DNA of 64,000 nucleotides from an uncultured Spirochaetales bacterium (GTDB lineage: Bacteria > UBP6 > UBA1177). Shown here piece by piece: positions 33,357 through 60,324 of this stretch (positions are counted from its first letter, which is position 1; every line of letters starts with the position of its first letter). Below the pieces are notes generated by a model. That model was not told the origin of the DNA, did no database searches, and saw only the letters and a list, made by a program, of their open reading frames with translations. A program made the translations under genes and the position numbers. The stretch spans positions 23,531 through 87,530 of the forward strand of contig CAZVWR010000002.1 of assembly GCA_964630905.1 (NCBI GenBank), written 5' to 3'.

Positions 33357-33384
33357 AAAGGTTGGGGATGAGAAAGAAAAACCT

Positions 33385-35540: not shown

Positions 35541-35870
35541 ACCTCATCATAATTTAAACACAACGGAAGTATTTTAATAAATTTAAAACAGAATAGAAGT
35601 TTTCCCCACCCATAAACAAAATTCCCCCTTCCCCTCATAAACCACAACCTTCGTTTCTATCTGCCTGGGTCGGAAAGATATGAAAGAAAACGGTGAATGA
35701 TGCGGTAAATTTTCATTCCGCACAAGTATTATGCCTCTATGAAAAAGTATGTCAAAAAAGTGAAATTCAGAACCTCAATGGATTTTTATTAACATAGAGT
35801 AACTTTTATTTACAATTATAGTGCAGATGGATATATTGTGGTGATTGAATTACCTCTATGGAGATTTCGT

Positions 35871-40106: not shown

Positions 40107-40109
40107 TAT

Positions 40110-41731: not shown

Positions 41732-41739
41732 GAGGAACT

Positions 41740-42795
41740 ATGATGAAATTTACTCAGGGTGATATTTTCACCGCAAACACAGAAGCAATTGTCAATACAG
41801 TGAACTGTGTCGGAGTTATGGGAAGAGGAATCGCTCTTCAGTTTAAAAAAAGATTCCCTGAAAATTTCAAAGAATATGAATCTGCATGCAGTAGAGAAGA
41901 AGTTGTTCCGGGGAAAATGTTCGTTTATGAAACAGGAGCTCTTTTTAATCCGAGAATAATTATTAATTTCCCCACAAAACGACATTGGCGTGGCGAAAGT
42001 AAAATTGAAGACATAGAAAATGGATTGATTGATCTTGTCAGAATTATTCAAGAAAAGAACATTAAATCAATTGCATTGCCGCCTCTTGGATGTGGATTGG
42101 GTGGTTTGAACTGGTCTGATGTGAAAATGCTTATTCAAAAATATCTGATCGCATTAAATGATGTTGAAGTTCTTGTTTTTGAACCTATTGGAGCTCCGGC
42201 TGCCGAAGAAATGGTGAAAAACCGGAAAGTTCCGGAAATGACATCCGGCAGAGCTGCTTTAATTGAACTGGTTGCTCACTATTTAAATGGATTGCTTGAC
42301 CCCATCGTAACACTTCTTGAAGTTCATAAATTAATGTATTTTCTTCAGGCATCAGGAGAAAATCTGAGACTTAATTATACGAAAGGACCTTTCGGACCTT
42401 ATTCTAAAAATCTGAGCCATGTTCTGAATGCTATAGAAGGACATTTGATTTCAGGTTATGCGGATGGAGGCGATAAACCGGACAAACGACTTAAACTGGT
42501 TCCAGGTGCTTATGAAAGTGCATCCGAATTTCTTGAAACGCAGAAAAATACAATAAAAAATCTGGAACGGGTCGCTGATCTTGTGAAAGGATTTGAAACC
42601 CCGTTTGGAATGGAACTCTTATCCACTGTTCATTGGGTGGTAGTTAATGAAAAAGCTGAGTCAAAAGAAGATGTTGTTGCAAAAGTTCATGCATGGGGAG
42701 AAAGAAAAAAACAATTTACGCCGCGGCAGATTTTTATAGCTCTTGATGTCCTTTCAAAAAAGAAATGGGTGGATGTTTCTTCATGGGAAAGCTAA
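41740..42795 (+). CDS. darG: DarG-like macrodomain antitoxin
   Basis: N-terminal macrodomain (GDIFTANTEAIVNTVNCVGVMGRGIALQFKK ... IALPPLGCGLGGL) plus ~200-aa C-terminal domain; overlaps darT stop. Confidence 0.7.
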   Translation: MMKFTQGDIFTANTEAIVNTVNCVGVMGRGIALQFKKRFPENFKEYESACSREEVVPGKMFVYETGALFNPRIIINFPTKRHWRGESKIEDIENGLIDLVRIIQEKNIKSIALPPLGCGLGGLNWSDVKMLIQKYLIALNDVEVLVFEPIGAPAAEEMVKNRKVPEMTSGRAALIELVAHYLNGLLDPIVTLLEVHKLMYFLQASGENLRLNYTKGPFGPYSKNLSHVLNAIEGHLISGYADGGDKPDKRLKLVPGAYESASEFLETQKNTIKNLERVADLVKGFETPFGMELLSTVHWVVVNEKAESKEDVVAKVHAWGERKKQFTPRQIFIALDVLSKKKWVDVSSWES

Positions 42796-45700
42796 ATATA
42801 AAACCAACCGACACAACTGAAGCCGGACTTGAATCTCTCATTGTTAAATCACTGATTGAAGAATCGAAATATGTTGCAGGTGATCCTCGTGATTATGACA
42901 GAACACATGCTGTTGACCTTGTTAAACTGACTGATTTTATTAAATCTACTCAGCCGGAAATTGCCGATTCTCTTTCCCTTGATGCTGACTCTCCGACCCG
43001 GACCCAATTCCTTCACAGGCTTCAGGGTGAAATAGCAAAAAGGGGCGTGATTGATGTTTTGCGTAGAGGATTGAATCACGGACCCCACTCAATAACAGCA
43101 TTTTACGGAACTCCGACAGCAAACAATGAAAAAGCAAAAGAACTGTTTGAGAAGAATATTTTCAGTGTGACCCGTCAGCTCCGTTACAGCTCAAGTGAAA
43201 CACAACTTGCTCTCGATATGGGCGTTTTCATAAATGGATTGCCTGTGGCAACATTTGAGCTGAAAAACAAGCTGACAAAACAGACTGTTGAAGATGCAGT
43301 GCAGCAATATAAGAATGATCGTGACTCCAAAGAACTGCTTTTCCAGTTTGGTCGGTGTATGGTTCATTTTGCGCTAGATGATCATGAAGTTGAAATGTGT
43401 GCTCACTTAAAAGGAAAAGACTCATGGTTTCTGCCATTTAATAAAGGTTTTAATGATGGAGCAGGAAATCCGCCCAATCCGGATGGCCTGGCAACAGATT
43501 ATTTATGGAAAGAAATACTAACAAAGCCGAGACTGACAGATATTATTGAGAATTATGCTCAGATCGTTGAAGAAAAAGACCCGAAAACCGGAAAGAAAAA
43601 ATATAGGCAGATATTTCCACGGTATCATCAGTTAAAAGCAGTTCGAAAGCTGCTCTCAGACGCACAAATCAACGGAGCCGGGAAACGATATCTCATTCAA
43701 CATTCTGCCGGAAGCGGCAAGTCAAATTCAATCGCCTGGCTTGCTCATCAACTCGTCGGGCTTGAAAAAAACAAAAAACCTGTATTTGACTCCATAATTG
43801 TTGTAACAGATCGAAGGGTTCTTGATAAGCAGATCAAAGACACAATTAAATCATTTGCTCAGGTTTCCAACATCATAGGTCATGCAGAAAGATCCGGAGA
43901 CTTGAAACGGTTTATCAGTGAAGGCAAGCAGATAATAATCACAACAGTCCAGAAATTTCCTTTCATAATTAATGAGATCGGAGATGAGCACAGAAATAAT
44001 AAGTTTGCAATAATTATTGATGAAGCTCACTCAAGCCAGGGAGGAAAAGCTGCAACGAAAATGAATATTGCTTTAGCATCTACATCAGAAGTGAGGGAAA
44101 ACTGCGAAAAATATGATGATTTGCTGATGGTTGCTGAAAGAAGTCCTGAATATACTGGCGAGTGTGAAGATGTTGACTTGGAAGATCAAATCAATTTTAT
44201 TATGGAAAGCAGAAAGATGCTTAATAATGCAAGCTATTTTGCATTCACTGCAACTCCGAAAAACAAGACTCTTGAAATATTCGGAGAACCTTTTCCGCAA
44301 CCTGACGGCAAGATTAAACATAAGCCTTTTGACAGTTATACAATGAAGCAGGCAATACAGGAAGGATTTATAAGGGATGTGCTTAAAAATTACACTCCAG
44401 TGGAAAGTTATTATAAAATCACAAAAAAAATTGAGGACGACCCATATTTTGATTCTAAAAGAGCCCAGAAAAAACTCAGAAAGTTTGTAGAATCGAACAA
44501 ATATGCAATTAAAGAAAAAGCAGAGATAATAATTGATCATTTCCAGACTCAGGTGATTTCCCGTCGTAAAATCGGGGGTGAAGCCCGTGCAATTGTTGTA
44601 ACAAGCGGGATAATGCGTGCAATTGAATATTACTATGAAATAAGCGCCTACATAAAAGAAAAAAAACTGCAGTACAAAGCCATCGTTGCATTTTCAGGGG
44701 AACATGAATACGGTGGGGGAAAAGTCACGGAATCTACAATTAATGGATTTCCAAGTAATCAGATAGAAGATAAAATTATTGAGGATCCATACCGTATTCT
44801 GGTTGTTGCCGATAAATATCTTACTGGCTATGACGAACCATTGATGCACACAATGTATGTTGATAAGCCGCTTGAAGGAATTAAAGCTGTTCAGACACTT
44901 TCCCGGCTTAATAGAGCCCATCCTAAAAAACACGATACTTTCGTTCTGGATTTTTATAATGACACAGTAACCATTCAGAGTGCGTTCGCAGATTATTACA
45001 GAACAACCATATTGAGTGAAGAGACCGACCCCAATAAGCTTCACGATCTCAAATCTGACATTGATCTTTATCAAGTTTATTCATTTGAGCAGATTGATGA
45101 TCTTGTGGAAAAATATCTGTCAGGAGCTGAAAGAGATTCTATTGATCCTATCCTTGACACATGTGTTGCTGTTTATAATAGTGAACTTGATGAAAATGGA
45201 CAGGTTGATTTTAAAGGTAAGGCAAAGGCATTTGTAAGAACATACGGGTTTCTTTCTGCACTTCTTCCGTATAACAACGCTGAATGGGAAAAACTCTCGA
45301 TATTTCTTAATTTTCTAATACCCAAACTTCCTGCCCCGAAAGAAGAAGATCTTTCAAAAGGTATTTTGGAAACTATTGATCTTGAAAGTTACAGAGCTGA
45401 AATGAAAGCGACAATAAATATCTCTCTGCCTGATGAAGATGCTGAACTTGGAGCTGTGCCTACCACAGGAGGTGGTCGTAAACCCGAGCCGGAGCTTGAT
45501 CAACTCAGCAACATATTGAAAACTTTTAATGATCTTTTTGGGAATATCGAGTGGAAAGATGATGATAAGATCAGGAAAGTCATTGCTGAAGAAATTCCCG
45601 AAATGGTTGCCGCTGACACAGCATATCAGAATGCAATGAAAAATTCTGATAAACAGAACGCCAGAATAGAGCATGACAAGGCCCTCCAAAGAGTAATTCT

Positions 45701-45827
45701 AACGCTTATTGCCGATCACACGGAGCTTTATAAACAGTTCAGCGACAATCCATCTTTCAATAAATGGTTGGGAGACACAATATTTAACGCAACTTATTCA
45801 GAGAATGAAAATAATATAAACAGGTGA
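42783..45827 (+). CDS. hsdR: Type I restriction enzyme R subunit
   Basis: Walker A HSAGSGKSNS, DEAH box IIIDEAHSSQ, helicase motifs, HsdR N-terminal nuclease region; start overlaps darG stop. Confidence 0.9.
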   Translation: MGKLNIKPTDTTEAGLESLIVKSLIEESKYVAGDPRDYDRTHAVDLVKLTDFIKSTQPEIADSLSLDADSPTRTQFLHRLQGEIAKRGVIDVLRRGLNHGPHSITAFYGTPTANNEKAKELFEKNIFSVTRQLRYSSSETQLALDMGVFINGLPVATFELKNKLTKQTVEDAVQQYKNDRDSKELLFQFGRCMVHFALDDHEVEMCAHLKGKDSWFLPFNKGFNDGAGNPPNPDGLATDYLWKEILTKPRLTDIIENYAQIVEEKDPKTGKKKYRQIFPRYHQLKAVRKLLSDAQINGAGKRYLIQHSAGSGKSNSIAWLAHQLVGLEKNKKPVFDSIIVVTDRRVLDKQIKDTIKSFAQVSNIIGHAERSGDLKRFISEGKQIIITTVQKFPFIINEIGDEHRNNKFAIIIDEAHSSQGGKAATKMNIALASTSEVRENCEKYDDLLMVAERSPEYTGECEDVDLEDQINFIMESRKMLNNASYFAFTATPKNKTLEIFGEPFPQPDGKIKHKPFDSYTMKQAIQEGFIRDVLKNYTPVESYYKITKKIEDDPYFDSKRAQKKLRKFVESNKYAIKEKAEIIIDHFQTQVISRRKIGGEARAIVVTSGIMRAIEYYYEISAYIKEKKLQYKAIVAFSGEHEYGGGKVTESTINGFPSNQIEDKIIEDPYRILVVADKYLTGYDEPLMHTMYVDKPLEGIKAVQTLSRLNRAHPKKHDTFVLDFYNDTVTIQSAFADYYRTTILSEETDPNKLHDLKSDIDLYQVYSFEQIDDLVEKYLSGAERDSIDPILDTCVAVYNSELDENGQVDFKGKAKAFVRTYGFLSALLPYNNAEWEKLSIFLNFLIPKLPAPKEEDLSKGILETIDLESYRAEMKATINISLPDEDAELGAVPTTGGGRKPEPELDQLSNILKTFNDLFGNIEWKDDDKIRKVIAEEIPEMVAADTAYQNAMKNSDKQNARIEHDKALQRVILTLIADHTELYKQFSDNPSFNKWLGDTIFNATYSENENNINR

Positions 45828-45834
45828 TAGTACT

Positions 45835-46689
45835 TTGAAAACAGGACATAGATCTACACTTATAATTTTAATCATCGCAACCGTAGTTATCATTATAATA
45901 GGGTTTGGATATCCTTTTTTTACAAACGAAACCATGAACATGTCAAGTCTTTCAAGTTGGATTTCAGCTATAATATCCAGTACTGCTTTCATATGGCTTA
46001 TATTCGGTTATTTTTTGCAGATGAAATCTTTAAATATACAAAGTATAGAAGTCGAACGGATGGCAAAGTTTGCAGCTTTGCAACAGATTCAAAATGCATT
46101 TGGCTTATTAAATGAAAAGGTAAAAAATTCAGGATATAAAGACGTTCATACTTTATCTGTGGAATTTCCGATGACTATGGCATTCACCATTAAAAATGTT
46201 GTTGAAAATAAAACCGATGAAAAACTGAAAATGGAGTGGATGTCTAAATGGACAAATTTTAAAAGTCTGTGTGATGAATTTATTGGCACTTTCGCAATGA
46301 TGTTAAAGCTTTATGATGAAGCACCTGAAAAAGAGATGGTTCAAAAAAAGAAACTGACTACCATAGAGAGTTCAATGAAAACCCTGAACATTGATGCAAA
46401 AACAATAAAGGATTTTGAGTCCATCGTGGACTATAAAAATGCATGGTATATTAAGACGAATTTCAAAAGAGCCCAAGAAATTCCAGTATTAGCTTTTTAT
46501 TCAAAGGCGGCTGGGATGTTGGCCGAGAGTATGATTCGTTTTGAACCAGGCATTGATATAGTCGAACTTGAGATACTTGAGGACAGTGAAAAAACCATTC
46601 CTGGTTGTGTAAAGAGCGAATATTTAGAAAAATTAAGAAAAAAGGTTGGCGATAGGGAAAAAGAAAGAGAGTCCAAAAAGAAGGTCTAA
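45835..46689 (+). CDS. Hypothetical membrane protein (2 N-terminal TM helices + ~220-aa helical cytoplasmic domain)
   Basis: LIILIIATVVIIIIGF and ISSTAFIWLIFGYFL hydrophobic helices; TTG start 8 nt after hsdR. Confidence 0.45.
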   Translation: MKTGHRSTLIILIIATVVIIIIGFGYPFFTNETMNMSSLSSWISAIISSTAFIWLIFGYFLQMKSLNIQSIEVERMAKFAALQQIQNAFGLLNEKVKNSGYKDVHTLSVEFPMTMAFTIKNVVENKTDEKLKMEWMSKWTNFKSLCDEFIGTFAMMLKLYDEAPEKEMVQKKKLTTIESSMKTLNIDAKTIKDFESIVDYKNAWYIKTNFKRAQEIPVLAFYSKAAGMLAESMIRFEPGIDIVELEILEDSEKTIPGCVKSEYLEKLRKKVGDREKERESKKKV

Positions 46690-46697
46690 GTTTAAAT

Positions 46698-47414
46698 ATG
46701 GTCAAGAAAAAGTTAAACCATAGTGTTTTATTCAGTCAGTCAGGTATTAATTATTCAACGACGGTTGAAGCTGCATTAGCAAAAACCATAATTCATGCGC
46801 TCGAACAGTACAAAATAAAATGGTCTTTGGGAAACAAGGTGTTATATGCAATGTGTAAAAATCACCCTGGACATAAAACTGAAGAGGAAATTCTGGCAAA
46901 AATATGGCTTATCGGAAGATCTTACGCTGCTGCCCTTGAGAGAAGAAAGAACAAAGAAAAAGAGTCAAGTAACGACGATTTTTACAATAATGCGGCAGAT
47001 CAGATCCAACAATCTGAAATAGATAAATGGATTGAGGAGAGTCGAAACAACAATGACCCTCAGGTTCACATTAAAACACACAAAAAGGTAACAACTCTTT
47101 TTGAAACGATAACTGGGCTCGAAAAACGGTCTCTTGCATCAAAATACCTTCACTTCCACCTGCCGAAAAAGTTTTTCATATATGATTCCAGGGCTGCTGG
47201 GGCAATGCCGGCTCTTTTACGGGAACTCGGCATTAAAAAGGTCACTGTCACCCATAAGGGCGAGGAATACGATGAAAAATATGCAGCGTTTTACGAGAAA
47301 TGTTTTGTCGCCCAGAAAGCAATAAAAGAAAAGTTCAACATAAATTGCAGTTGCAGAGATCTTGATACTGTGTTGATACATTTTGATAAGATCAAGAAAA
47401 CATTAAATATTTAA
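46698..47414 (+). CDS. Hypothetical protein (238 aa)
   Basis: ORF 9 nt after the preceding gene; no motif recognised. Confidence 0.4.
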   Translation: MVKKKLNHSVLFSQSGINYSTTVEAALAKTIIHALEQYKIKWSLGNKVLYAMCKNHPGHKTEEEILAKIWLIGRSYAAALERRKNKEKESSNDDFYNNAADQIQQSEIDKWIEESRNNNDPQVHIKTHKKVTTLFETITGLEKRSLASKYLHFHLPKKFFIYDSRAAGAMPALLRELGIKKVTVTHKGEEYDEKYAAFYEKCFVAQKAIKEKFNINCSCRDLDTVLIHFDKIKKTLNI

Positions 47415-47425
47415 GGGTGGTAATT

Positions 47426-48355
47426 ATGAGTAATAAAATAAAAAATGTTAAAAAGGTTCTTTTCATAAAACTTGGTGAGAAAGGTAAGTTTGAGGAGGAC
47501 TGTATTGAGAAAAGCAACACACTGAAACTTGATTACACAGAAATAGATCATAATGCTTGCACTAACGGTAACTGGGATAAGGTTAGAGAACATTACTTAA
47601 TTAAAGGTAATAAGCCGCAAGTAGCGACAGGTCATGTAAACCAAATAAAGCGTTTTTATGAAGAAGATAAGAAAACTCTCTGGATAACCTTTTATTCAAA
47701 CAAGCTATGGTGGTGTTTTTCAACTCCGAAGATCACAAAACTTCATGACAGCACCAAAACCCGTCCAGTAATCGGTAAGTGGTCTGACAAAGACATAAAT
47801 GGGAAAAAACTTTCTTTCGATAAGCTAAGCGGGAAGTTGCTGAAAACCCAAGGGTTCAGAGGTACTATTTGTGAGGTTCCGGAAAAAGAATATGTTCTGG
47901 CTAAAATTAATAGTGAAAAAAACCAAGATGTTTTGGATGTTGAAAAAGCTGTTTCAGTCCTGCAATCAAAGTTGACCAAGTTAATTCAAACTCTTCATTG
48001 GAAAGATTTTGAAACCCTTGTTGATCTTATATTCAGACAAGCAGGATGGCAAAGAGTTAGTGAGGTAGGAAAAACACAGAAAACATTAGATCTTGATCTT
48101 TTTGCGCCGGTAACTGGTGAAAGAGCACTGGTGCAGATAAAAGCACAGTCAAAATTTTCTGAGTTTGAAGAGTATAAGAAGGACTTTGAAAACATGAGCA
48201 GTTTCAACAAATTCTTTTATGTTGTACACACTTCTGACGAAAAACTTAAAAGTTATAAAAATGTCGGGAATATAAATATATGGCTCATCGAAAAAGTGGC
48301 AGAGCTGACAATTTCTGCCGGGTTAGTAGACTGGGTTATAAAGAAAACTTCCTGA
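47426..48355 (+). CDS. Protein with C-terminal Mrr-cat type PD-(D/E)xK restriction-endonuclease domain
   Basis: WKDFETLVDLIFRQAGWQRV ... TLDLDLF ... ALVQIKAQS (D...QxK core) as in Mrr N-terminal catalytic domains; unknown ~180-aa N-domain. Confidence 0.5.
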   Translation: MSNKIKNVKKVLFIKLGEKGKFEEDCIEKSNTLKLDYTEIDHNACTNGNWDKVREHYLIKGNKPQVATGHVNQIKRFYEEDKKTLWITFYSNKLWWCFSTPKITKLHDSTKTRPVIGKWSDKDINGKKLSFDKLSGKLLKTQGFRGTICEVPEKEYVLAKINSEKNQDVLDVEKAVSVLQSKLTKLIQTLHWKDFETLVDLIFRQAGWQRVSEVGKTQKTLDLDLFAPVTGERALVQIKAQSKFSEFEEYKKDFENMSSFNKFFYVVHTSDEKLKSYKNVGNINIWLIEKVAELTISAGLVDWVIKKTS

Positions 48356-48979: not shown

Positions 48980-49078
48980 CAAATTCCACCCCTCCCGATT
49001 TTCATCAATTCTTGTTGGGTATACCCCACATAAGACACAAAAAGCCCAATGATTTCAAGAAAGCGTTCCGCCAGATCT

Positions 49079-49186
49079 GGTTGTCTATTTCCCACAACAG
49101 CCAGGCCGTCAACCTCGGAAATGTTGTCTATATCCTACAAGAATAGTTCCTCTGCAGCATAATTGTTGTCTATATCCTACAAGAAT
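49079..49186 (+). repeat. Three 22-23 bp direct repeats (gttgtctat[a/t]tcc[t/c]acaa...) with 16-20 bp spacers, bracketed by an 11-bp direct repeat cctcccgattt (48991-49001 and 49207-49217)
   Basis: Read directly; iteron-like. Confidence 0.7.
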
Positions 49187-49318
49187 CCGGTTTTTGAGGG
49201 CAGTCGCCTCCCGATTTCCTTAAAACTTCAATTTATACCAATATACTTTAAGTACTATTTAAGAGGAATGATTTTAAAGATTTACAGAAAAGAAACAAGC
49301 CGTTTGAGACTTTTGTTT

Positions 49319-49903
49319 TTAACTTTTAAGCCACAATTCTACCTCAGAAAGCGTTTCCATGGTTCCGTCCTTGCCCGCTGCTGTTACAAGAGAACCGGTA
49401 CTTAAAGAATATACCGAGTACCCTCGGTTTTCTTTTAGTAAATAGAACCCTGCTTTTTTTAAGCGATCGTCCATTATTGCTTCCTCTTCGTCTAGGTCAA
49501 TCTGAAATGCTCTATATTCCTCTTCAAGAATATCTTTCTGTTGTTCTACATCAGACAGTGTTAAAGTTGCAGTTTTTGAAGAAGATTCCCAACCATATAA
49601 AGGACTGTCGTCGCTGTCGCAGATATAGTATAGCCCTTTTTTCTTGATCAAATCATAACCCATTGATTGCAAATTCCGTCGCAGCAATCTTTCTGTTTCT
49701 TCTATATCGTTTTCAATACTTTCGACTTCTTTTTCAAGATCGTCAAGGCTGAACATTGCACACTTTGATGTTGGATCCCATCCATATTCCGGAACCCCGC
49801 GATCATTCATAATAAAGAAATTACTTTTGATTTTTGAAACAGAGAATCCTCCTCCCGCAATTCTTTCATTGAGAGCACTAATTTTACTCATGATATCCTC
49901 CAA
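49319..49903 (-). CDS. Hypothetical protein with internal duplication (two ~80-aa homologous halves)
   Basis: GWDPTSKCAMFSLDDLEKEV... vs GWESSSKTATLTLSDVEQQK... Confidence 0.4.
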   Translation of the reverse strand: MEDIMSKISALNERIAGGGFSVSKIKSNFFIMNDRGVPEYGWDPTSKCAMFSLDDLEKEVESIENDIEETERLLRRNLQSMGYDLIKKKGLYYICDSDDSPLYGWESSSKTATLTLSDVEQQKDILEEEYRAFQIDLDEEEAIMDDRLKKAGFYLLKENRGYSVYSLSTGSLVTAAGKDGTMETLSEVELWLKS

Positions 49904-50180
49904 AAAAATAAATCTACAAAAATTCCATCAACACAGTCCGTTTTTCTTGATTGTTTTTCAAAAAACATTTTACCTCCAATACAAAAATTAATGAACAACA
50001 TACCAACACCATTGTAGGTATATTTAAAAATCAGAGAGCATACTATAAAAAAGCTCTGCATCAGATATGATGATTTTTTTCATCATACAGTTTTGCCGTA
50101 CATCGAGATATCGTGATAAGTCGTATGAAGTCTTGTGATGCCCTGCCGTGCCTTTTTTCCATTCTATCGGGCTGAATCAA

Positions 50181-50276
50181 AAAATGACTCAATAAGAATC
50201 GAAAAATCCTCAAAGAGAAAGCTGCATAAATCCTCAAGGGCGAAGCAGCGTTAATCCTCAATAGGAAAAACTGTGT
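50181..50276 (+). repeat. Four iteron-like units at exact 24-bp period (core AATCCTCAA.G.GAA) 3' of the recombinase gene
   Basis: aatcctcaa at 50205, 50229, 50253 plus a degenerate unit at 50181. Confidence 0.7.
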
Positions 50277-50370
50277 AAATATAACAAAACGCATCTGTTT
50301 TGTCAATAAGACGAAAAAAAAAACCAAAAAAAAGGAGCCCATTACAGACTCCCTTTTAATACAAATTTCG

Positions 50371-50916
50371 CTATAGCGAAAACTTCTCCAGCGACTCATC
50401 AATGGCATCCTGAGTTATGCCGATATACCTCAGTGTGACTGCGGGTGATGAGTGGTTGAAGATCTTCTGGAGCATGGCGATGTCCTTGCTCATGCGGTAG
50501 TAATGAAACCCGAAGGTCTTTCTCATTGTGTGTGTTCCTATCCCTTCAAGTCCTACTTCCCTGGCGGCACTGTTGAGGATCCTCCATGCCGAAACTCTGG
50601 TGAGCGGTCGCTTTCCCCCCTGCCTTGAGAGGAACAGAAACTCATCATCATCCCTGCCCCGGACATAGCAGTCGATCTCCCGCTGAAGGTTGTCATTGAT
50701 CTTGAACTTCTTCTCCTTGCCGGTCTTCTGTTCACGGATAACGATATGGCTCCGCTCCCGGACATCCTCCACCCTGAGCCGGAGCAGATCCCCGACCCTG
50801 ATGCCGATGTTTATCCCCGACACAAAAAGGAAATAGTTCCTGAAGGACTGCTCCCGCAGTATCTTCTTCATCTGCTCGATCTTTTCCTGATCCCTTATCG
50901 GATTTACACTGTTCAT
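50371..50916 (-). CDS. Small tyrosine recombinase (181 aa)
   Basis: Catalytic-domain motifs GTHTMRKTFG (H..R) and VTLRYIG (Y). Its size resembles FimB/FimE and other small inversion recombinases. Confidence 0.75.
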   Translation of the reverse strand: MNSVNPIRDQEKIEQMKKILREQSFRNYFLFVSGINIGIRVGDLLRLRVEDVRERSHIVIREQKTGKEKKFKINDNLQREIDCYVRGRDDDEFLFLSRQGGKRPLTRVSAWRILNSAAREVGLEGIGTHTMRKTFGFHYYRMSKDIAMLQKIFNHSSPAVTLRYIGITQDAIDESLEKFSL

Positions 50917-51021
50917 GGTAGCACCTCTCTTTTAAGTTATTATCTCTGATCTGAAACTTTTCTGACCTGATACTTATACCACAGAATGCCCGGTTTTTGC
51001 GTCAGAACGAAAATGCGCAAT

Positions 51022-51188
51022 CCCTTTTCCAGGCAGGGAAATAAGTTATGTTACACTCAGTGAAACACACTATGTTTTTATGTTACCCGATTTTGCTCAG
51101 TATGTTACACCCAGAAATGGTGTCTTTTAAAAGCTAATGAAATTAGGCAGTTACAAATTCATGTAACTTAATGTATATTGTGTTACAT
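51022..51188 (+). repeat. Copy 2 of the TGTTACA-rich element, with a ~55-bp internal duplication flanked by atgttacacYcag
   Basis: Aligns with 29408-29519; contains GTTACA-n6-TGTAAC-n14-GTTACA inverted repeats and four (a)tgttac(a) motifs. Confidence 0.85.
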
Positions 51189-51231
51189 ATAATAATAAAA
51201 TCCTTGCTTGTTTTCTTTGCTAATATTAATT

Positions 51232-52005
<774 letters not shown>

Positions 52006-52160
52006 TTTTACCTCTCTTTAAAGTTTGTATTTAAAAAAACTCGCACCCTTCTTTATTAGAATAAATATTACAAGATGTTAATCAAGTTTTTACGGCATAT
52101 ATGCCGTGGACAATTAATTTTCCTCACATATTGTTATTTCAACCTTTTTGTGGGAGTTTC

Positions 52161-52409
52161 ATGAAAGTCGAAAAGTTTCTGGCAGAGATTCTCCGAAGAG
52201 AGAGAAGAAAGAAAAAACTATCGCAGGAAAAAACTGCTGTTCTTGCTGGAATTGACCGTTCATATTATTCAAAAATTGAAAGGGGCGAAAATAAGCCGAC
52301 TCTTGTAATTCTTTTTAAAATCAGCAGCGTTTTCGGAATTAAACTCTCTGAAATGATTAAAGAATTAGAAGACAGAAATCCAAAAATTTACAAAAATCCT
52401 GATAAATAA
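52161..52409 (+). CDS. HTH XRE-family DNA-binding protein
   Basis: LSQEKTAVLAGIDRSYYSKIERGENKPTL. Confidence 0.6.
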   Translation: MKVEKFLAEILRRERRKKKLSQEKTAVLAGIDRSYYSKIERGENKPTLVILFKISSVFGIKLSEMIKELEDRNPKIYKNPDK

Positions 52410-52808
52410 TTTTAAAATATCGCAGTGTGTTCAGATAATAAAGAGATCCTGCTTAAAAGATCCCTTTGCAACCGGCTTTCTTCAGTGCCTCAAGTTGAAG
52501 ATTCAGTATCTGATCAAGAATGATTACCTGTGCACAACCTACTCACGATTTTCCTCCTTGAAGTTAATATGTATATTGAAAATTCTGATCTCTACAATTA
52601 CTTATAACAGAATCCCAGAAAATTTTTCGGGTCGGACTTATCTCATAAACGCCAGTTAAGCGATGTTGATTTTGAGACGGGATTTGAGACAGGTTTTTTT
52701 ATCTTCTGAAGGGTTTCATAAACCTTCGTTTTTGAGAATTAATTATTTTTCTTTATATCGACTTAGTATCTGTAAATTATATTTTAAATCCCAAAAACAA
52801 AGAGAATT

Positions 52809-52958
52809 TTAAAAATCCCATTTGAAAAGAAATATATCATTACCACCGGCACCGGTCTTACCGTCCAGAGATCCTTTGGTGTACCCGGTTACAAATATGT
52901 TACCGCTGCTGTCCACTGCAACAGAGGATGCAAAATCACCTTCGCTCGTTCTCTGTCA
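52809..52958 (-). pseudogene. Remnant of an SBBP-repeat (beta-propeller) protein gene
   Basis: Minus-strand frame QRTSEGDFASSVAVDSSGNIFVTGYTKGSLDGKTGAGGNDIFLFKWDF* preceded by an in-frame stop; no intact gene. Confidence 0.5.
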
Positions 52959-53244
52959 CTGGTTACCGTCACGCAGTGACATAGAGCCAGAGAGAAAACG
53001 GAGACTGCTCTACGGCAGACTCAGAGCAGTTAAGAGATTATTATGGCAGTTGATTAAATTTGATATGTCTTTGGAAAAAACCTATACTCCGAAAAGAACT
53101 TGCTTTGGAAAGAAGGGGTTATGAGAATGTCATATAATTGGGAAAACAATTAATATCGAGTACACATGGACATCAATATAAACTCAATGGAACAGTACTA
53201 ATATAAATTGACAGGGTGTTTTTGAAATAAACAAGGAGCAGTAA

Positions 53245-54132
53245 ATGACTGAAAAAACAAAAGTACGGAAGTATGTTATAATAATGATAACAATAGTAAT
53301 AATATTTATTATTGGATCTATACTTTTTGTGGCTACTATGAATTCTGACCTGTATGGCAGGTTGATCGAAACAAAAAAGATCCAATTCTTCAACTCTGGA
53401 AAAGAGCAGTCTGACATACTACCTGAAGTTACGCTCATTTTACATAAATATGTCCGAGAAGAAAATTCAATAGAAGCATCAATGATTCTTAGATATGATG
53501 AAAGAAAGATGTTTCAGGACCTTAAAACCGACACTTTGCAATTCGTTGTTAGGTATGATGAGGGTTCTGGTATCTTACCTTTTGGACTTAACAAGTTCTA
53601 TCATACCGACAAATTTAATGGTGAAAACTATGGCGCTGTTAATTCGGTTTTTGAAACTAACAGGTTTTTAATTCCAACTCTTCCCTCTATGTATGGTTTC
53701 CCCTTTGACGATATACAAATTATCCCAATAATCTTTTTGTATGTTAACGGAAGGAACAGTAAGCTAAATACTGTAATTCAGAAAAATATTCCTGGCAGGA
53801 CAATAGAATTCTCAGAGAATAACAAAAAAGTAATTTTTCTAACCAGACTTCCGGCAGAAAAGTATCTGGTAATGATTAGCTCCGTGGTTTTTTTATTATT
53901 GACTATATTACTTACTTATAGCCTTTTTACTACAAAAGAAGAACTGAAAACAGTTGAGGAACTTATTGCAGTAGCGGGATACATCTTGGCGACAGCAGGT
54001 TTTAAAGAGATTGTTGGCATCGATAGAAGCAATGGAACGAGTGCTTTAGAAATTCTTGTTATTTTAATTCCACTTTTATTAGTTTTTTCGGGATTAATAT
54101 ATTCATTTTATAAGGCCAAAAAAGCTGTATAG
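53245..54132 (+). CDS. Hypothetical membrane protein (N- and C-terminal TM segments)
   Basis: Hydrophobic segments IIMITIVIIFIIGSILFVA and LVMISSVVFLLLTILLTYSLF. Confidence 0.4.
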   Translation: MTEKTKVRKYVIIMITIVIIFIIGSILFVATMNSDLYGRLIETKKIQFFNSGKEQSDILPEVTLILHKYVREENSIEASMILRYDERKMFQDLKTDTLQFVVRYDEGSGILPFGLNKFYHTDKFNGENYGAVNSVFETNRFLIPTLPSMYGFPFDDIQIIPIIFLYVNGRNSKLNTVIQKNIPGRTIEFSENNKKVIFLTRLPAEKYLVMISSVVFLLLTILLTYSLFTTKEELKTVEELIAVAGYILATAGFKEIVGIDRSNGTSALEILVILIPLLLVFSGLIYSFYKAKKAV

Positions 54133-54497
54133 GATGAACAAATAATCAATAACACGAGTTCAACTTATTTGAATTTGCAAAGAAATCGAAAATCAGGACA
54201 CTTATAAAAAATTGCCTTGCTACAATGACAGGTGGTATGTATAAAATTACAAACGATTATCTATATATATGCCTACAGGAATGATGTTTTTAATGGTTTT
54301 TCAAACGCGCCTGATTGAAAATATTCACAGTTTAAGATACTGAGTGGTTTTGGTCGTCATCGTTTGTCGATGTCGGGGGATACTGATTTGGGATATATTT
54401 CGCAATTGCTCTTATAAATGATCCTGAACTCAATAAGGGCACACCTGCATTACCTAATTTTGTTAAGAAGATCGTGAAGAATCGGTAGTTAGTCGAA

Positions 54498-57400
54498 TTA
54501 ATTACCAAGATTTATCATAATATGAAACATTTCAGCATTTTCACCATGTAATGTTTTTGCTATCTTGAAGTTTCTCACATCATCAAATTCATTAGTGATA
54601 TCAATAAAACCTCGTTTCTTATCTATCAAAAAAGTGGAAGGATAGTCAATCCCAAGAACATGTGATTCATATTTATTCCAGTTTTTATCAAAATTTTCAG
54701 ACTTTTTAAGGTAATAAATTATAACATAATACCTGTTTAAATATTCAATATATTTTTCACACTTTAAAATATGCTTCTGATTATATTCTTCTGTTCCAAA
54801 AACAAGAGCTTCTATAAGTGCAAAATCTTTTCCTCTTGAACTTAATGCAAAATCAGCATTACCCGCATCCTTCCCACCGTCAGATTTTCCAGTTCTTGGT
54901 TGATCATTTATATTCCAACCCCAAATAGCAAACCTTGGCAACAAGACTGCTTGAATAAAATCATTATAATGGTTTTCCAATATTTTCTGAGTTGCAACTT
55001 TCTTTTTCAATAAAGTTTGAAGAGCTAATATCAACTCATTTAAAATAAAAACTTCCAGCTCTTTTTTATTATTAATACATTCGGGAGTTATTCTTGGAAT
55101 ATTCTTTGGTTCTTGATTAATAATGTCCTTAAAAGAGTCTTTTAATATCGGCAATCTTTCCAATTTTGAATTCTGAATTAAATCATTAACATTTTTAGAT
55201 ACATCTTTATCATGTTCCCTTATATAACACTCTGATTTTTTTATATAATTGGACGCGAACTCATACATTTCCCTTTTCTTATAAAACTCATAAATTACCG
55301 GTATCATATCTTCATCATACAAAAATCGTTTTGATAACCGATTTATTGTTTGGTCAAAACTTACAGAATCTTCAATTGAAACATAGTAAAAAACCTTGTT
55401 ACTATCTACTTCTTCTGAAAAACCTACAAGCTTTTTCTTTTCCTCTGTATCATTAAGATTTTTAATGAAATTGTCCCATTCAGCATTAGCTTTGGCAAAC
55501 ATTTCTTTTGAAAATTCTTTTTCATTTGCTTCCAATGTTTGAGCACAATATAAGTATAGAGAATATTTTACATCTTGAGGATTTTTCTTAGACAAAGATT
55601 TCAAAATTTTAACTGCTTCAGGATAGTTTTTATCTTTATACATTTTATAAATAGCTACATAAAATGTCTTAAGATCTTCATTGGAAAATTTGTTGGGACC
55701 TCCCTCCGTTTTTGGAATTTCAAGACCATAAAGAGTTTCCCAATCTTTTTCTTTAAAAGCCAAAAGTAATTTTACCTCAAACATGAAAGAGTTAAAACGC
55801 GCATCAACAGTTTTTCTTTTTATATGATGTTTCTGAACTTCTTCAATAAGTGACTTTGCAAAAGCATAATGCTGTTCTGAATTAACCGCCTCTACTAAAG
55901 CATGTTCAAGTTCTGTAATCCAGTGTGCCGAATTTATAAAATCGTCAATTTTTATTTCCTTTATTCTTTTTGAAATCACATCTTTTACTTCTTTAGAATC
56001 TGTGCTGTTAATTGCTTTTAGCATTCTTTCAAAATTGACACTTTTTAAAAAGAATTCTTTAAAAAATTCGATTTGATTCCCTTTGTTAAAATAATTCAAA
56101 GACTTATATAGCAATTTTATTAATGGGGTGTGGTAAATGTTCTTCTCACTTAAATGGAATTTTTCATTAAAAACATCAATTCTTTTATTAGATAGCTCAT
56201 CACGAGAATAATTAAATGAGTAATATTTTATTAGGCTTTCCAATTCATTTGTAGTCTTTGTAACGGGCAAACAATGTGATTCATAAGCATCACGGCTTTG
56301 ATTTATTGATGTGTGAGCAACTAATAAAGTTTTCAAATAAGTCTTAATCTTTTCATGCTGTTCTAAATTTTCTTCATCATATTCACTTTCGTCTGAATTA
56401 AAACTCAGAGAACTAATAAAATCAGAGTCTATTTTTTTGAGAAAATCATACTTTTGAAAATGTAAAAACAAACATCCCCAGTCAATTATCTCATATCCAA
56501 ACTCTCCTGTACCTCTTCTTCTGACCTTTTCTGTTTTTGTTAATCCTGAGGAACAATCTATTACAGATATTTCTTTTGCACAGTAGAACCTTATTATGTA
56601 GTCCTTCAACGATGCAACTAACTCTTTTAAGAATTTTTCTATTTCGTCTTTCTTTTCAGACTCTTCCAAACCAGAAATATAGCTGTCATAAAAATTCAAA
56701 AGCTTTATTGAAAAATCAACAACGCCTGAATCTAGGTTTAATAATCCTGTATGATTTGGACTTGGATTATCTAATTTATTGATAATATATTTAGAAAGAC
56801 TTTGGATAGAATCATTTACTAACCCATGGTTGAAGTTACTGCCAACTATTCTCTTATTTTCAATAAGATATAAAGCTTTTTGATATCTTTTTTTATAAAA
56901 ATCATGCCGATTATTATCAAACCTACCCGCCGATCTTCCATTAAAAGCTTTTTCTGCAGCATCAAGCAAAATTCTAGCGAACATATTTCCAATTTCTTTG
57001 TCTCTAGAATTAGAAATGCTTATCTTATCCAGTATAAACTCAAACATTTCAAGCCAAATTTGACTCTTTATTTCGTATTGTTCCGTCATATCGTTGTGAT
57101 TGACTTTTTTTAAGATATTGTGATTTATTACAACTTCATCGACCATTCTTAACACAACTGGAACTGTATCTGGATCATATAATAAATACGGCAGGATCTC
57201 AGGATATTTTTCAGGAACTGTCTTAAATAAAGCCCAAATTAGAAAAGGCCTCGAAATGTCTTTAAAAATGGAAATAATTTCATCATATTTACTAAAATTA
57301 TTTGATTCATTCAAAATTATCAATCTTAAAAAAGTGTGATATATATATCGAGGCCCCTCATACAAACAACAGCAATCTCTGTTTGGCCATTCAAATATTT

Positions 57401-58319
57401 CCAGATTTTTAAGCACAGCATCAATATTCTCATCTTTTAATCTAAACATTTTATCATTTGAATAACTAACTTTTATTTCATATCTTTCAAAACAATCAAA
57501 AACATTCTTTGTTGATTCATATTCTGAATTTATAAGATCTTCTTCATCAATGAGATAATTATGTGCCGACTTGCAAATTGCCAAACATTCTGACTCCGGC
57601 AAATAATTTCTCATATCGCCCACATATAATCCAGAAATTCTAATATATTCAAAAAATTGATTAAACTTTTCATCGTATGATTTTTTGTTTTTAATCAAAT
57701 GCCACAAAATTGAACCAATTTCATTTTTGAATAAATTTAATAAGTGGTGATGCCGTTTATTCCAAACATAGTCTTTTTCATCTTTTTCCATCCAAATAAG
57801 TTTTTCTTTTTTGAAATATTCCACACTCAAACCTGAGTTTTCTTCAATCAATATTTTCTCTATTACCTCTTTTGAAACGAAAACTCTATCTTCTTGAAAA
57901 TACTGTTCATTATATAAATTTAAACATTTTAATAGATTTAATTTTTTTTCAGAGATGTCATTGTTTTCTTTATCTTTTAAAACTTTCTTAACATAAAGCA
58001 ATACTTGACGAGGAATTAATGCTTGACCAGTTAAAATTCTGATCCAACCTTCTTGCTTAAAATCTTCTAAAATTAATGCAGTGCAATTCTCTTCATTATA
58101 CTTTTCAATTATTTCTAAGAATTTATTTTTACTTTTATCTGAAGATTTTAATTCTAAAATAATTCTTGCAAGAATGTATGAAAGCCTGTGTTTAAGGTCA
58201 TCTTTCCTTATAATCCAATCATTATGGCGCCCATTTCTGCTTCTGTCTAAATTATAAAACTTTAATCTTTGGCTTAATGATTCCAGTTTTATTGAATCTT
58301 GTGGCTTTATAAATGGCAT
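54498..58319 (-). CDS. Very large (1273 aa) AT-rich orphan protein, no recognised catalytic motif
   Basis: Continuous ORF. Base composition is markedly more AT-rich than flanking genes. C-terminal segment TGKSDGGKDAGNADFALSSRGKDFALIEALVF is weakly PD-(D/E)xK / Mrr-like. Confidence 0.45.
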   Translation of the reverse strand: MPFIKPQDSIKLESLSQRLKFYNLDRSRNGRHNDWIIRKDDLKHRLSYILARIILELKSSDKSKNKFLEIIEKYNEENCTALILEDFKQEGWIRILTGQALIPRQVLLYVKKVLKDKENNDISEKKLNLLKCLNLYNEQYFQEDRVFVSKEVIEKILIEENSGLSVEYFKKEKLIWMEKDEKDYVWNKRHHHLLNLFKNEIGSILWHLIKNKKSYDEKFNQFFEYIRISGLYVGDMRNYLPESECLAICKSAHNYLIDEEDLINSEYESTKNVFDCFERYEIKVSYSNDKMFRLKDENIDAVLKNLEIFEWPNRDCCCLYEGPRYIYHTFLRLIILNESNNFSKYDEIISIFKDISRPFLIWALFKTVPEKYPEILPYLLYDPDTVPVVLRMVDEVVINHNILKKVNHNDMTEQYEIKSQIWLEMFEFILDKISISNSRDKEIGNMFARILLDAAEKAFNGRSAGRFDNNRHDFYKKRYQKALYLIENKRIVGSNFNHGLVNDSIQSLSKYIINKLDNPSPNHTGLLNLDSGVVDFSIKLLNFYDSYISGLEESEKKDEIEKFLKELVASLKDYIIRFYCAKEISVIDCSSGLTKTEKVRRRGTGEFGYEIIDWGCLFLHFQKYDFLKKIDSDFISSLSFNSDESEYDEENLEQHEKIKTYLKTLLVAHTSINQSRDAYESHCLPVTKTTNELESLIKYYSFNYSRDELSNKRIDVFNEKFHLSEKNIYHTPLIKLLYKSLNYFNKGNQIEFFKEFFLKSVNFERMLKAINSTDSKEVKDVISKRIKEIKIDDFINSAHWITELEHALVEAVNSEQHYAFAKSLIEEVQKHHIKRKTVDARFNSFMFEVKLLLAFKEKDWETLYGLEIPKTEGGPNKFSNEDLKTFYVAIYKMYKDKNYPEAVKILKSLSKKNPQDVKYSLYLYCAQTLEANEKEFSKEMFAKANAEWDNFIKNLNDTEEKKKLVGFSEEVDSNKVFYYVSIEDSVSFDQTINRLSKRFLYDEDMIPVIYEFYKKREMYEFASNYIKKSECYIREHDKDVSKNVNDLIQNSKLERLPILKDSFKDIINQEPKNIPRITPECINNKKELEVFILNELILALQTLLKKKVATQKILENHYNDFIQAVLLPRFAIWGWNINDQPRTGKSDGGKDAGNADFALSSRGKDFALIEALVFGTEEYNQKHILKCEKYIEYLNRYYVIIYYLKKSENFDKNWNKYESHVLGIDYPSTFLIDKKRGFIDITNEFDDVRNFKIAKTLHGENAEMFHIMINLGN

Positions 58320-58485
58320 CTCAACTCCTTTTAATCTTAAAAAACGCCAATGATTACGAAAGATAACCTTATTGTTTCAATTGTCAATTTAAGCCACCAA
58401 AACCCAGAAAAGAACACATCCCAAAATCCCTCCATTTTTCTGTTATAAGTGTTTGTGAATACAGACATTATTTCAGGAGGAAACT

Positions 58486-59094
58486 ATGAAAGAGATCGCG
58501 AGTACTATTGCAGAGAGGGGTGCTGGTTACTGTTCCAATCCGGATCTGCTGGAATTCATTTTCGGGAAGGTCCGTCCGGATCACCGTCATGCTATCGAGA
58601 GGATAATAAATTCAGGTGAGGATCCTGAGAACACGAAGCTTCCGGGAAAGATGAAGCTGAAGCTGAAGGCGTTTTATGAGCTGGGTGCCCGGATGTTCGA
58701 GAAGGGTAAGATCCGGCTGGGGAAGAGTTCCGATGTGGCGGATCTGTGCAGGGATATGAGGACTCTGAAGCAGGAGCATTTTGTAACGCTCACGGTGAAC
58801 GGCAACAACTGCCTGATCTCAAAGCGGGTCATCTTCATCGGGACTCTCAACAAGTCAATCGTCCATCCGAGAGAGGTGTTCGCTGCGGCCATTTCAGATC
58901 ATGCGGCGGGGATCGTCCTGGTGCATAACCATCCAAGCGGCAACCCCGAGCCGAGTACTGAGGACATCATCATGACCCGTAAGCTTGCAGAAGCGGGAAA
59001 TATCCTGGGGATAGAGGTCATTGATCATGTGATCATAGCGGATTCGAATCATTACAGTTTTCAAGGTAACGGACTTATTAAGAGGGAGGTTTAA
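58486..59094 (+). CDS. radC: RadC-family JAB/MPN domain protein
   Basis: HNHPSGNPEPSTEDI JAMM-like motif; 202 aa. Confidence 0.8.
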   Translation: MKEIASTIAERGAGYCSNPDLLEFIFGKVRPDHRHAIERIINSGEDPENTKLPGKMKLKLKAFYELGARMFEKGKIRLGKSSDVADLCRDMRTLKQEHFVTLTVNGNNCLISKRVIFIGTLNKSIVHPREVFAAAISDHAAGIVLVHNHPSGNPEPSTEDIIMTRKLAEAGNILGIEVIDHVIIADSNHYSFQGNGLIKREV

Positions 59095-59097
59095 ACC

Positions 59098-60324
59098 ATG
59101 CAGATCAGTACACATGAATTTAAAAGGGCGGTTGAGAACTGCCTGCTCATCACACCGAAGAAACCGAAGCTCAGCATACTCGGGCTTCTCAAACTTGATG
59201 CCGGTAATAACAGCATCACACTTTCAGCAACGAACCTTGAAGAGCACTACTCTGTCACAGTGTCGGTCAGGAACGGCGAAGAGTTTTCGGCACTTATCCA
59301 GGGTGACCAGCTTTTGAAGGTGTTAAAGAACATTAAGAATGAAACGGTCGAGCTTGACGGTGAAAGGAATGAAACATCTGACATAGCTCATATCAGGATC
59401 GTTTCAGGTATGACATTCCGGCTCAATGCGGAAAACAGTGTCGATGATTTTCCGGGTATCCCCCGTGACGACTTCAGGAAAAGTGCGGCAGTTGAGATCT
59501 CTGATCAGAAAGTGCTTTTTGAGATCATGAAGAAAGTCCTTTTCAGCACAACTCAGCAGAATGTCAACAAGGCATATTCCGGAGTGCTGTTCTCTCAGAA
59601 GGATGATCACCTTGAAGTTGTCACGACCGACATCCACCGGCTCACAGTGGTAACAACGACTTCGGCACAGACAAAAGCCGATTTTGTGATACCGGCAGAA
59701 TCGGTAAAAAATCTGACCAGAATGTTTAAAGATGCGGCAGTTACAGAAGTTCTTCTTGCAACTGAACCGCAGGAAGAGAGTGGATCAGAAAAACCGGTTG
59801 ATGCGACAATGATCATGTTCATGACCAGCCATGAATGCTATGTCTCACGGCTTCTCAAGAACGAATTTCCCAATTACAACAGGGTTGTAGACATTGGCAT
59901 CGTTGAAAAAAGCTGGTTTGAAATTGAGAGAAAACCGCTCCTTGAAAAGCTCAAAACACTCATAGACTTCCATGCCGGAATGAAAATTGTGAGCGCAGTC
60001 TTTGACTTTGTTAACGAAACCCTCCACATCTCAACATGCGGAGGCGCTGAATCGTCCGTGCAGACAGAGATCCCCATCCGGCCCGTCAACGAAAACCCCG
60101 ACGCAGTAAAAATCACCGGACTCAATCTGAAGTACCTCCAGGAAGCAGTCAGCAGCATGGGAAGTGTCGCCGTCAACCTCATCGAAGGAGCAGAACTCAA
60201 ACCCTTCTACCTCACCGACAGACAACCCGGTTACCGGCTCTATCACCTCATCATGCCCATGAGAATTGAAAATATCAGAAGCCGGAAAGTTGCCACAGAG
60301 CAGAAAGCGACAAAAGCCGCGTGA
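59098..60324 (+). CDS. DNA polymerase III beta (sliding clamp)-like protein, divergent paralogue
   Basis: Three-domain clamp-like length (408 aa) and a DnaN-type C-terminal tail PFYLTDRQPGYRLYHLIMPMRI (compare ...YVVMPMRL); start 4 nt after radC stop. Confidence 0.55.
   Translation: MQISTHEFKRAVENCLLITPKKPKLSILGLLKLDAGNNSITLSATNLEEHYSVTVSVRNGEEFSALIQGDQLLKVLKNIKNETVELDGERNETSDIAHIRIVSGMTFRLNAENSVDDFPGIPRDDFRKSAAVEISDQKVLFEIMKKVLFSTTQQNVNKAYSGVLFSQKDDHLEVVTTDIHRLTVVTTTSAQTKADFVIPAESVKNLTRMFKDAAVTEVLLATEPQEESGSEKPVDATMIMFMTSHECYVSRLLKNEFPNYNRVVDIGIVEKSWFEIERKPLLEKLKTLIDFHAGMKIVSAVFDFVNETLHISTCGGAESSVQTEIPIRPVNENPDAVKITGLNLKYLQEAVSSMGSVAVNLIEGAELKPFYLTDRQPGYRLYHLIMPMRIENIRSRKVATEQKATKAA

Follow-up and report, generated by a model that had tools for sequence, protein, structure and literature searches.

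What does a small tyrosine recombinase gene do with the repeat-rich spacer that lies beside it? We asked this of a locus in a 64-kb window (the whole stretch of DNA analyzed here, to which all coordinates refer) taken from a 122-kb contig of a metagenome-assembled genome (MAG) of an uncultured Spirochaetales bacterium. A sequence-only reading of the locus had proposed a promoter-inversion or shufflon switch, in which the recombinase would act on inverted repeats in the spacer and possibly control the lipoprotein family to which the neighboring gene belongs. Our analysis points to another role for the same elements. We put at roughly 65% the probability that the spacer serves the recombinase encoded beside it as a cognate, composite recombination site, used for resolution and for excision and integration and forming the exchange point of a variable island, and that the protein is a Xer-like tyrosine recombinase reduced to its catalytic domain, predicted to be active from an invariant R-K-H-R-H-Y set of residues.

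The recombinase gene occupies 50371-50916 on the minus strand and encodes the 181-amino-acid (aa) protein that had been recognized before, with PF00589 (Phage_integrase, residues 10-165) as its sole Pfam match. Between it and the next open reading frame (ORF) are 315 bp (50917-51231), located 5' of the recombinase gene and 3' of the lipoprotein gene. The motifs that had drawn attention to this spacer are all in place: TGTTAC(A) occurs at 51049, 51081 (as TGTTACC), 51103, and 51181, the arrangement GTTACA-n6-TGTAAC-n14-GTTACA spans 51150-51187, and the internal duplication consists of TATGTTACAC[T/C]CAG at 51047 and 51101, 54 bp apart. The spacer holds six GTTAC/GTAAC pentamers where the frequency elsewhere in the window would predict 0.35 (Poisson P ~2e-6), and every other 315-bp stretch of the 64 kb has three or fewer. 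The palindrome CTTTTAAAAG (51124-51133) is likewise present but probably not functional because it is not conserved in relatives, being broken or absent in L003, L005, and L018 (L numbers denote related loci). No family was matched in an Rfam scan of 48.9-52.2 kb.

Most of these motifs resolve into a single composite site. Its core, at 51160-51189, reads CATGTAACTTAA TGTATA TTGTGTTACATA, a dif-like 12-6-12 arrangement whose central 6 bp, TGTATA, would be the crossover region. A position weight matrix (PWM) for full sites, built from related cores, was scanned over the window and over shuffled sequence; it returned exactly two full sites, both in direct orientation, scoring 29.4 (this core) and 31.3, against a shuffle maximum of 17.1. 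Escherichia coli dif has the sequence GGTGCGCATAA TGTATA TTATGTTAAAT (PMC3025954). The core, written for this comparison as ATGTAACTTAA TGTATA TTGTGTTACAT, is identical to it at 19 of 28 positions, with the central TGTATA fully matched and the XerD-type arm nearly identical.

Between the core and the gene lie accessory copies of the half-site, consensus GTAACATAA, at 51046, 51078, 51100, and 51149, all in one orientation (minus strand). The first (51046-51056, GTGTAACATAA on the gene strand) scores 15.4 with the half-site PWM, which places it in the window's top four, and is kept in L005 and L018 despite diverged flanking spacers. The second (51078-51088, GGGTAACATAA; PWM and family comparison) follows at 32 bp from the first, and the third (51100-51110, GTGTAACATAC) was recognized by family comparison. 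The first and third make up the 54-bp unit of the internal duplication, a unit that is missing from an orphan copy of the site at 29408-29520. The core-proximal copy, AGTTACAAA (51149-51157), came from the listing of inverted repeats; the GTTACA-n6-TGTAAC arrangement arises from the 6-bp gap between its GTTACA and the TGTAAC in the left arm of the core. This copy is only weakly conserved, reading GTTAT, GTTAC, and GTTAG in L005, L018, and L007, respectively.

The site and the gene are found together well beyond this lineage. Homologues 54-65% identical to the recombinase, on Bacillus plasmids, in IMG/VR viral contigs, and in other metagenomes, have the same core, TGTAAC-N14-GTTACA, about 125-175 bp upstream of their start codons in unrelated hosts, and most of them also have one or two accessory half-sites; the core occurred in none of the shuffled control loci. 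Examples include a Bacillus cereus phage-plasmid (L045) and the locus of a 65%-identical metagenome homologue (L007). Where the arms of the core change, they change as a pair: GCAAC appears in both arms in B. badius pPM8 (L046) and GAAAC in both arms in L077, with the palindrome retained in each. The window, L005, L018, L007, L045, L052, L059, and L046 all have accessory half-sites of the GTAACATA type between core and gene, that of L077 being the GAAAC variant, and the orientation of these half-sites relative to the gene is constant across the family. The 32-bp gap between two accessory half-sites recurs in the B. cereus plasmid (L045), and in L005 and L018, whose sites are 72-74% identical to that of the window, the half-sites are retained as the spacers drift. 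Because the same core precedes 54-65% homologues in unrelated hosts and its arms change in pairs, the inverted GTTACA/TGTAAC repeats are very probably the predicted binding and crossover site of the recombinase, and to this extent the earlier proposal of crossover sites is borne out.

The protein itself may be described as a "mini-Xer." It has neither a core-binding nor an arm-binding domain, the catalytic Arg (R40) coming after ~39 residues, and R40, K64, H129, R132, H155, and Y164 are unchanged in two homologue alignments (n=19 and n=24). It matches PHROG 216 ("integrase") over residues 1-180 (2.9e-64) and passes no curated NCBIfam family, scoring 82 bits for XerA (cut-off, 220), 62 for XerD (330), and 42 for XerS (267), and far under the cut-off for XerC; the integron-integrase models TIGR02249 and NF011946 gave 37 bits (265) and 18.8 bits (435). 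An AlphaFold model (mean predicted local distance difference test score [pLDDT], 88.6) has the archaeal XerA 4a8e as its top PDB match, with a template modeling (TM) score of 0.77, aligning solely to residues 108-276 of that protein; XerA is also the best sequence match. Further fold matches are XerH, followed by the catalytic domains of Tn1549 Int, IntI, and Cre. The family comprises 179-187-aa proteins of Bacillales, Clostridia, phages, plasmids, and others, 50-65% identical over their full length, with 228 phage and 2389 plasmid records among its members. In the GTDB species genomes, no close relative was found, with matches at 22-29% identity only, and no PADLOC model fits the recombinase or most of the neighboring genes.

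The site also coincides with a sharp boundary between conserved and variable DNA. Relatives share a module of ~0.87 kb (terminator, gene, and site; 50327-51187) and diverge on both sides of it. On the gene side, an alignment of downstream regions shows conservation stopping just past an intrinsic-terminator-like hairpin, located by a terminator scan at 50329-50357 (minus strand), that ends the module. On the other side, homology ends exactly after the outer GTTAC(A) in eight different contexts, and, depending on the contig, the DNA after the same base is one of at least six different segments. Empty and occupied states with identical flanks are both represented. In 14 contigs, which come from many anaerobic-digester samples, the site directly adjoins a radC-dnaN pair; in the window, the corresponding flank, which starts at CCCAAAATCC and continues into radC and a dnaN-like gene (58420-60324, plus strand), is set apart by a strain-specific insertion of 7.2 kb (insert A, 51188-58419), related contigs joining 51188 directly to 58420. 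Two unrelated insertions, one in the window and one in L016, terminate at one and the same base, before CCCAAAATCC. Among "empty" sites that are otherwise 96-97% identical, the 9-12 bp between GTTAC and CAAAATCC differ, and five independent right-hand contexts start with GTGGGGAGG. We considered this last motif as a ribosome-binding site and rejected it, as no start codon follows.

Insert A has a GC content of 24-34% over most of its length, compared with ~40% for the window, and family scans found no mobility gene in it. Misassembly is an unlikely source of the insertion, its junctions sharing no repeat longer than 4 bp. It carries the lipoprotein gene (51232-52005, minus strand; 257 aa, its N-terminus lipoprotein-like, with a collagen-like GNTGDT repeat and an Lcl_C/DUF1566 domain), a gene for an XRE-type helix-turn-helix (HTH) protein, a 295-aa ORF with no family match, and a 1273-aa ORF of unknown family. 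Since the lipoprotein gene lies on this insertion and the site adjoins radC in 14 contigs, the association of the recombinase with the lipoprotein gene, judged by this comparison, is strain specific. Other contigs carry other cargo beyond the site: Metallophos, Sel1, and Lcl_C in L001, PrsW and TIR-Lcl_C in L005, PEGA-Lcl_C in L018, a 2077-aa protein in L016, and yet another set in L017.

The second full site of the window is the recombinase-less copy at 29408-29520, which has the highest PWM score (31.3) and, as a partial copy, consists of a perfect core, CATGTAACTAAA TGTATG TTGTGTTACAGT (29491-29520), and one accessory half-site. It stands in direct repeat with the first, 21.7 kb away (29491 and 51160). 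The intervening block holds a Type I restriction-modification (R-M) system with an embedded DarTG, a DprA-like gene, an Mrr-like gene, and the recombinase. The DNA that follows the second site (29519-32951; insert B) starts with GTGGGGAGG and encodes a 779-aa collagen/Kelch protein and a 294-aa ORF; the same motif follows the core in L001, L017, L018, and site 2 of L022. Next (32952-33409, plus strand) comes a duplicate, decayed and with internal deletions, of the radC flank together with radC and the 3' end of the dnaN-like gene; it was identified by blastn with L002, L003, and L022. A smaller version of this layout exists in L022, with sites in direct repeat at 6484 and 12113: an orphan core with GTGGGG, 5.6 kb of DNA, and then recombinase, site, and radC. 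Homology between the window and L042, an 86% identical strain, is lost at 29315, so on this comparison the variable island starts there. The pattern around the second site fits, without proving, tandem integration and subsequent decay of recombinase-carrying elements whose attP would consist of a P-arm, the core, and GTGGGGAGG.

Taken together, these features suggest a mechanism. Recombinase monomers would bind GTAACA(T/C)AA half-sites, and two inverted half-sites around the 6-bp TGTATA would form a dif-like core for strand cleavage and exchange. The three to four accessory half-sites, all in the same sense, would set up a selective synapse and might also provide autoregulation of the gene, in the manner of DR1/DR2 in the TnpI/internal recombination site (IRS) system of Tn4430. 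Sites in direct repeat would be expected to undergo deletion (resolution or excision) and the reverse integration, but not inversion. The module would thus sit in a hypervariable island in which the DNA beyond the core's outer arm differs between strains and a 21.7-kb block is bracketed by direct sites.

Several observations weigh against this scheme. Neither insert A (7.2 kb) nor insert B (3.4 kb) is flanked by a second full site, and the PWM scan for full and half-sites gave nothing above background at their ends at 32.9 kb and 58.4 kb. The right junction of insert A shows a 4-bp ACAT microhomology and the loss of ~10 bp, and that of insert B at most a GTTAC. Simple two-site integration does not account for these inserts, and their junctions may instead stem from the decay of tandem elements, from illegitimate events, or from homologous exchange between conserved flanks. 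To the radC flank, insert A's left end has marginal homology (a common AAAATCC; 11 of 500 shuffles score as high) and that of insert B none. The L016 insertion removes both the accessory half-sites and the core, so the site is not respected by every event. The centers of the paired sites differ, at one base in the window (TGTATG versus TGTATA) and more in L022 (TAGGTA versus TGTATG), and present-day recombination between them may therefore be inefficient. Linkage of site and gene is not universal either: in most Firmicutes phage homologues (~52% identity), no such core was seen upstream, and the gene there overlaps an ArpU-like gene. Finally, it is we who infer half-site binding, cleavage, the position of the crossover, its directionality, and the part of this recombinase in making the observed junctions.

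Other explanations fare worse. That the recombinase flips a segment between the inverted GTTACA repeats, and so controls the lipoprotein gene or its own, seems to us hardly credible, even though short inverted repeats are present in the spacer and the protein resembles FimB/FimE in size and in the lack of a core-binding domain. That resemblance ends at sequence level, with 25% identity to FimB over 151 aa and 34 and 32 bits for the FimB/FimE models NF007370 and NF007371 (cut-offs, 221 and 222). When the 271-bp site was compared with 27 fetched matching loci (~22 distinct contigs), each gave a single colinear match and none was inverted, in consensus assemblies in which a rare inverted subpopulation would not show. 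The 21 full-length matches were 72-98% identical; one further locus had a truncated site only, and two had the core only. The repeats are the arms of one 12-6-12 core, not two sites bracketing a segment, and the accessory half-sites are uniformly oriented and kept so relative to the gene across the family. The lipoprotein gene, missing in most strains, turns its 3' end toward the spacer ("convergent on the spacer"), and because the spacer lies 3' of that gene it cannot hold its promoter. By these observations the locus is not a lipoprotein phase-variation switch, and neither an inversion or shufflon switch nor control of the lipoprotein family is supported. A domesticated DNA-binding regulator, for which the repeats would be operators and which would repress or activate transcription like MrpR/YopR of SPbeta, is very improbable. 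Recombinase-fold repressors do have a precedent (PMC10516654). Distant hosts, however, all retain the complete catalytic hexad with its tyrosine nucleophile, the 12-6-12 geometry is that of a crossover site, the homology breakpoints coincide with the core, and autoregulation is compatible with recombination.

Use of the site mainly by host XerCD, as a dif or an attachment site of the type used by integrative mobile elements exploiting Xer (IMEX), with the small protein in an accessory or regulatory role, would explain the strong resemblance to dif, above all in the XerD arm and the center, and Xer-exploiting elements are known to integrate at dif and become flanked by dif-like sites (PMC5357621). 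We regard it as improbable. Both arms are one half-site, the pattern of a single homomeric recombinase, and do not differ as an XerC arm and an XerD arm would; across phyla the site accompanies the small gene, its half-sites changing in step; the catalytic residues are invariant; and there are two copies within 22 kb, with others on plasmids and viral contigs. Unlikely, but with more in its favor, is a chromosomal capture hotspot of integron-like logic without attC, where the resident recombinase would insert circular, recombinase-less segments at the outer edge of its dif-like primary site, within ~10 bp before CCCAAAATCC. The cargo accumulated in this uncultivated anaerobic-digester bacterium would then include the Type I R-M system, DarTG, the Mrr-like gene, large unknown ORFs, and Lcl_C/collagen-like surface genes. 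The empty and occupied states, the low GC content of an insert without a mobility gene, the variety of segments after one base, the five that start with GTGGGGAGG, and the two that end at one base of the radC flank would all suit such capture. Yet neither an attC-like site nor another dif-like one lies at the far ends of the inserts, the inserted genes run in both directions with no Pc-type expression logic, the protein is not an IntI by its score, and L016 breaks the site itself. The GTGGGGAGG class, moreover, is equally well explained as the other attP arm of tandem recombinase-carrying elements, as in L022 and at the window's second site. We favor the composite site of a small recombinase that would resolve and integrate.

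Several further features of the locus and its relatives deserve mention. A possible extended -10 element of the recombinase promoter, TGGTATAAG (50973-50981, minus strand), was read from the sequence; a sigma-70 consensus scan did not pick it up, and the block is kept in L005 and L018. Downstream of the recombinase terminator, a 1.26-kb strain-specific insert (49063-50326) separates it from a 179-aa HTH-like ORF. This insert contains three exact AATCCTCAA direct repeats at 50205, 50229, and 50253 (24-bp spacing, 50205-50261). A strong promoter-like site (TTGACA-17-TATATT with TG, 50278-50306, minus strand) closely precedes the repeats on its strand, and the array could be an operator or iteron-like. 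Within the 21.7-kb block, the R-M operon (35838-45827) runs hsdM, hsdS ... hsdR, with four genes between hsdS and hsdR encoding phosphoribosyltransferase-like, DprA/SLOG, DarT, and macro-domain DarG-like proteins; unknown ORFs and the Mrr-like nuclease gene follow (45835-48355). Exact-protein look-ups of a 320-aa ORF and of the 294-aa ORF returned no record.

In the variable DNA beside the site, Lcl_C/DUF1566 proteins recur in several strains, often with collagen-like, PEGA, or TIR parts (window, 51232-52005 and 61452-61925; L001, 1686-2711; L005, 1-811; L018, 639-2810). This recurrence may simply reflect a large paralogous family of the lineage. The 1273-aa ORF of insert A (54498-58319; GC, 24-31%), which stands beside the XRE-type HTH gene and the 295-aa ORF, has no credible match in Pfam, NCBIfam, or PADLOC (marginal TIGR02552; E value, 0.0014) and is a candidate for an unknown defense or conflict gene.

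The homologues also occur in varied company. In phages and phage-plasmids of Bacillus, Brevibacillus, and Streptococcus (L041, L045, L047, and L048), the recombinase gene comes after a gene for a Holliday-junction resolvase or a DNA-binding ArpU-like late activator. It precedes the terminase genes wherever these are visible, directly so in L045 and L048. Because this placement is unlike that of a lysogeny integrase, it suggests a role in genome resolution or maturation. In Pseudobacteroides cellulosolvens (L028, 6557-8549) and on a Priestia megaterium plasmid (L040, 1450-3043), the small recombinase forms a pair with a full-length tyrosine recombinase of 355 aa and 283 aa, respectively, and the intergenic region between the two genes in L028 contains a AACACAAT-GTTT-ATTGTGTT palindrome. 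Near-identical 26-bp cores (TGTAACTTAATGT.T.TTGTGTTAC) occur in unrelated contexts in two contigs with no recombinase gene (L023, 382-407, and L024, 1604-1628), in L024 between two large ORFs resembling methyl-accepting chemotaxis proteins. These may be solo or target sites, or chance matches, given 21 specified bases across the whole collection; a search of IMG/VR with the core pattern gave no match. The contigs L007 (7099-10818) and L008 (7099-9546) are otherwise 100% identical, but a stretch of at least 2.4 kb is inverted in one relative to the other. The inverted repeat at its borders is at least 123 bp long and falls inside a gene for a 542-aa large serine recombinase, whose start lies 160 bp downstream of the small recombinase (65% identical). 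The breakpoints have no GTAAC core, and the inversion may be linked to the serine recombinase or be an assembly alternative.

Genes for "site-specific integrases" of ~180 aa are annotated by the thousands in Firmicutes phages, plasmids, and metagenomes, and our literature and annotation searches found no assigned site or named function for this family. Both the family and its site thus appear to be experimentally uncharacterized, although their logic is familiar from known systems. The result for phase variation of the lipoprotein family is negative, and what the locus and its relatives offer instead is a testable site model (half-site GTAACATAA, a dif-like 12-6-12 core with TGTATA, and same-sense accessory repeats) and a sharp boundary of gene exchange in a defense-rich island. 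If the model is right, the protein would count as a minimal recombinase of one domain whose target is short and defined. It would be useful for learning how a tyrosine recombinase works without a core-binding domain and for annotating the recombinases of defense islands.

Comparison with known systems places the module among several of them. Like XerS/difSL, XerH/difH, and archaeal XerA/dif, it has a dif-like site of ~11-6-11 with near-symmetric arms, and the gene stands beside the site, as in the single module formed by difSL and the immediately adjoining xerS (PMC5357621). XerS, XerH, and XerA, however, measure 292-362 aa, carry a core-binding domain at the N-terminus, and exceed the cut-offs of their family models, unlike the recombinase described here. 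Those modules also act at one site in the terminus region, whereas this site lies on mobile DNA, with accessory half-sites, and occurs twice in 22 kb. Because of this pair and of the homologous sites on plasmids and phage-like contigs, the sequence comparison argues against a chromosomal dif role. Among phage elements, dimer resolution by the Xer-like recombinases of plasmid prophages is no more than "believed" (PMC8026635), and a similar putative 11-6-11 site beside another phage recombinase is likewise uncharacterized (PMC9703825).

FimB/FimE, of ~200 aa, share the missing core-binding domain and the position of the gene beside its site, but the fim switch has two separated inverted repeats around a promoter, in contrast to one core with same-sense accessory sites here. 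As in IMEX and dif-flanked plasmid modules, a block of accessory genes (here 21.7 kb) is bounded by dif-like sites and DNA is exchanged at the site; those modules depend on host XerCD and carry no recombinase, whereas this one has its own and its inserts are not flanked on both sides. As in integrons, variable genes start at a primary site beside a resident recombinase gene, but there is no IntI signature, no attC hairpin, and no common cargo orientation or promoter logic, and no second site or palindrome was found at the far ends of the inserts.

The closest parallel in layout is TnpI/IRS. TnpI is a larger, two-domain recombinase of ~284 aa, whereas the protein here has 181 aa and a catalytic domain only. 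In Tn4430, the IRS has a core of inverted motifs and accessory direct repeats that contain the same 9 bp, confer resolution selectivity, and impose deletion between directly repeated sites (PMC2847244). No Tn3-family transposase was present among the ORFs scanned at 27.5-64 kb, where no search was made for terminal inverted repeats, and the half-site is unrelated to the IRS motif, resembling dif instead. The two systems nevertheless share a core of two inverted motifs with direct repeats of the same motif on one side, a layout that recurs in the homologues, and in both a single recombinase would act alone, with cleavage points 6 bp apart, as predicted for the site described here.

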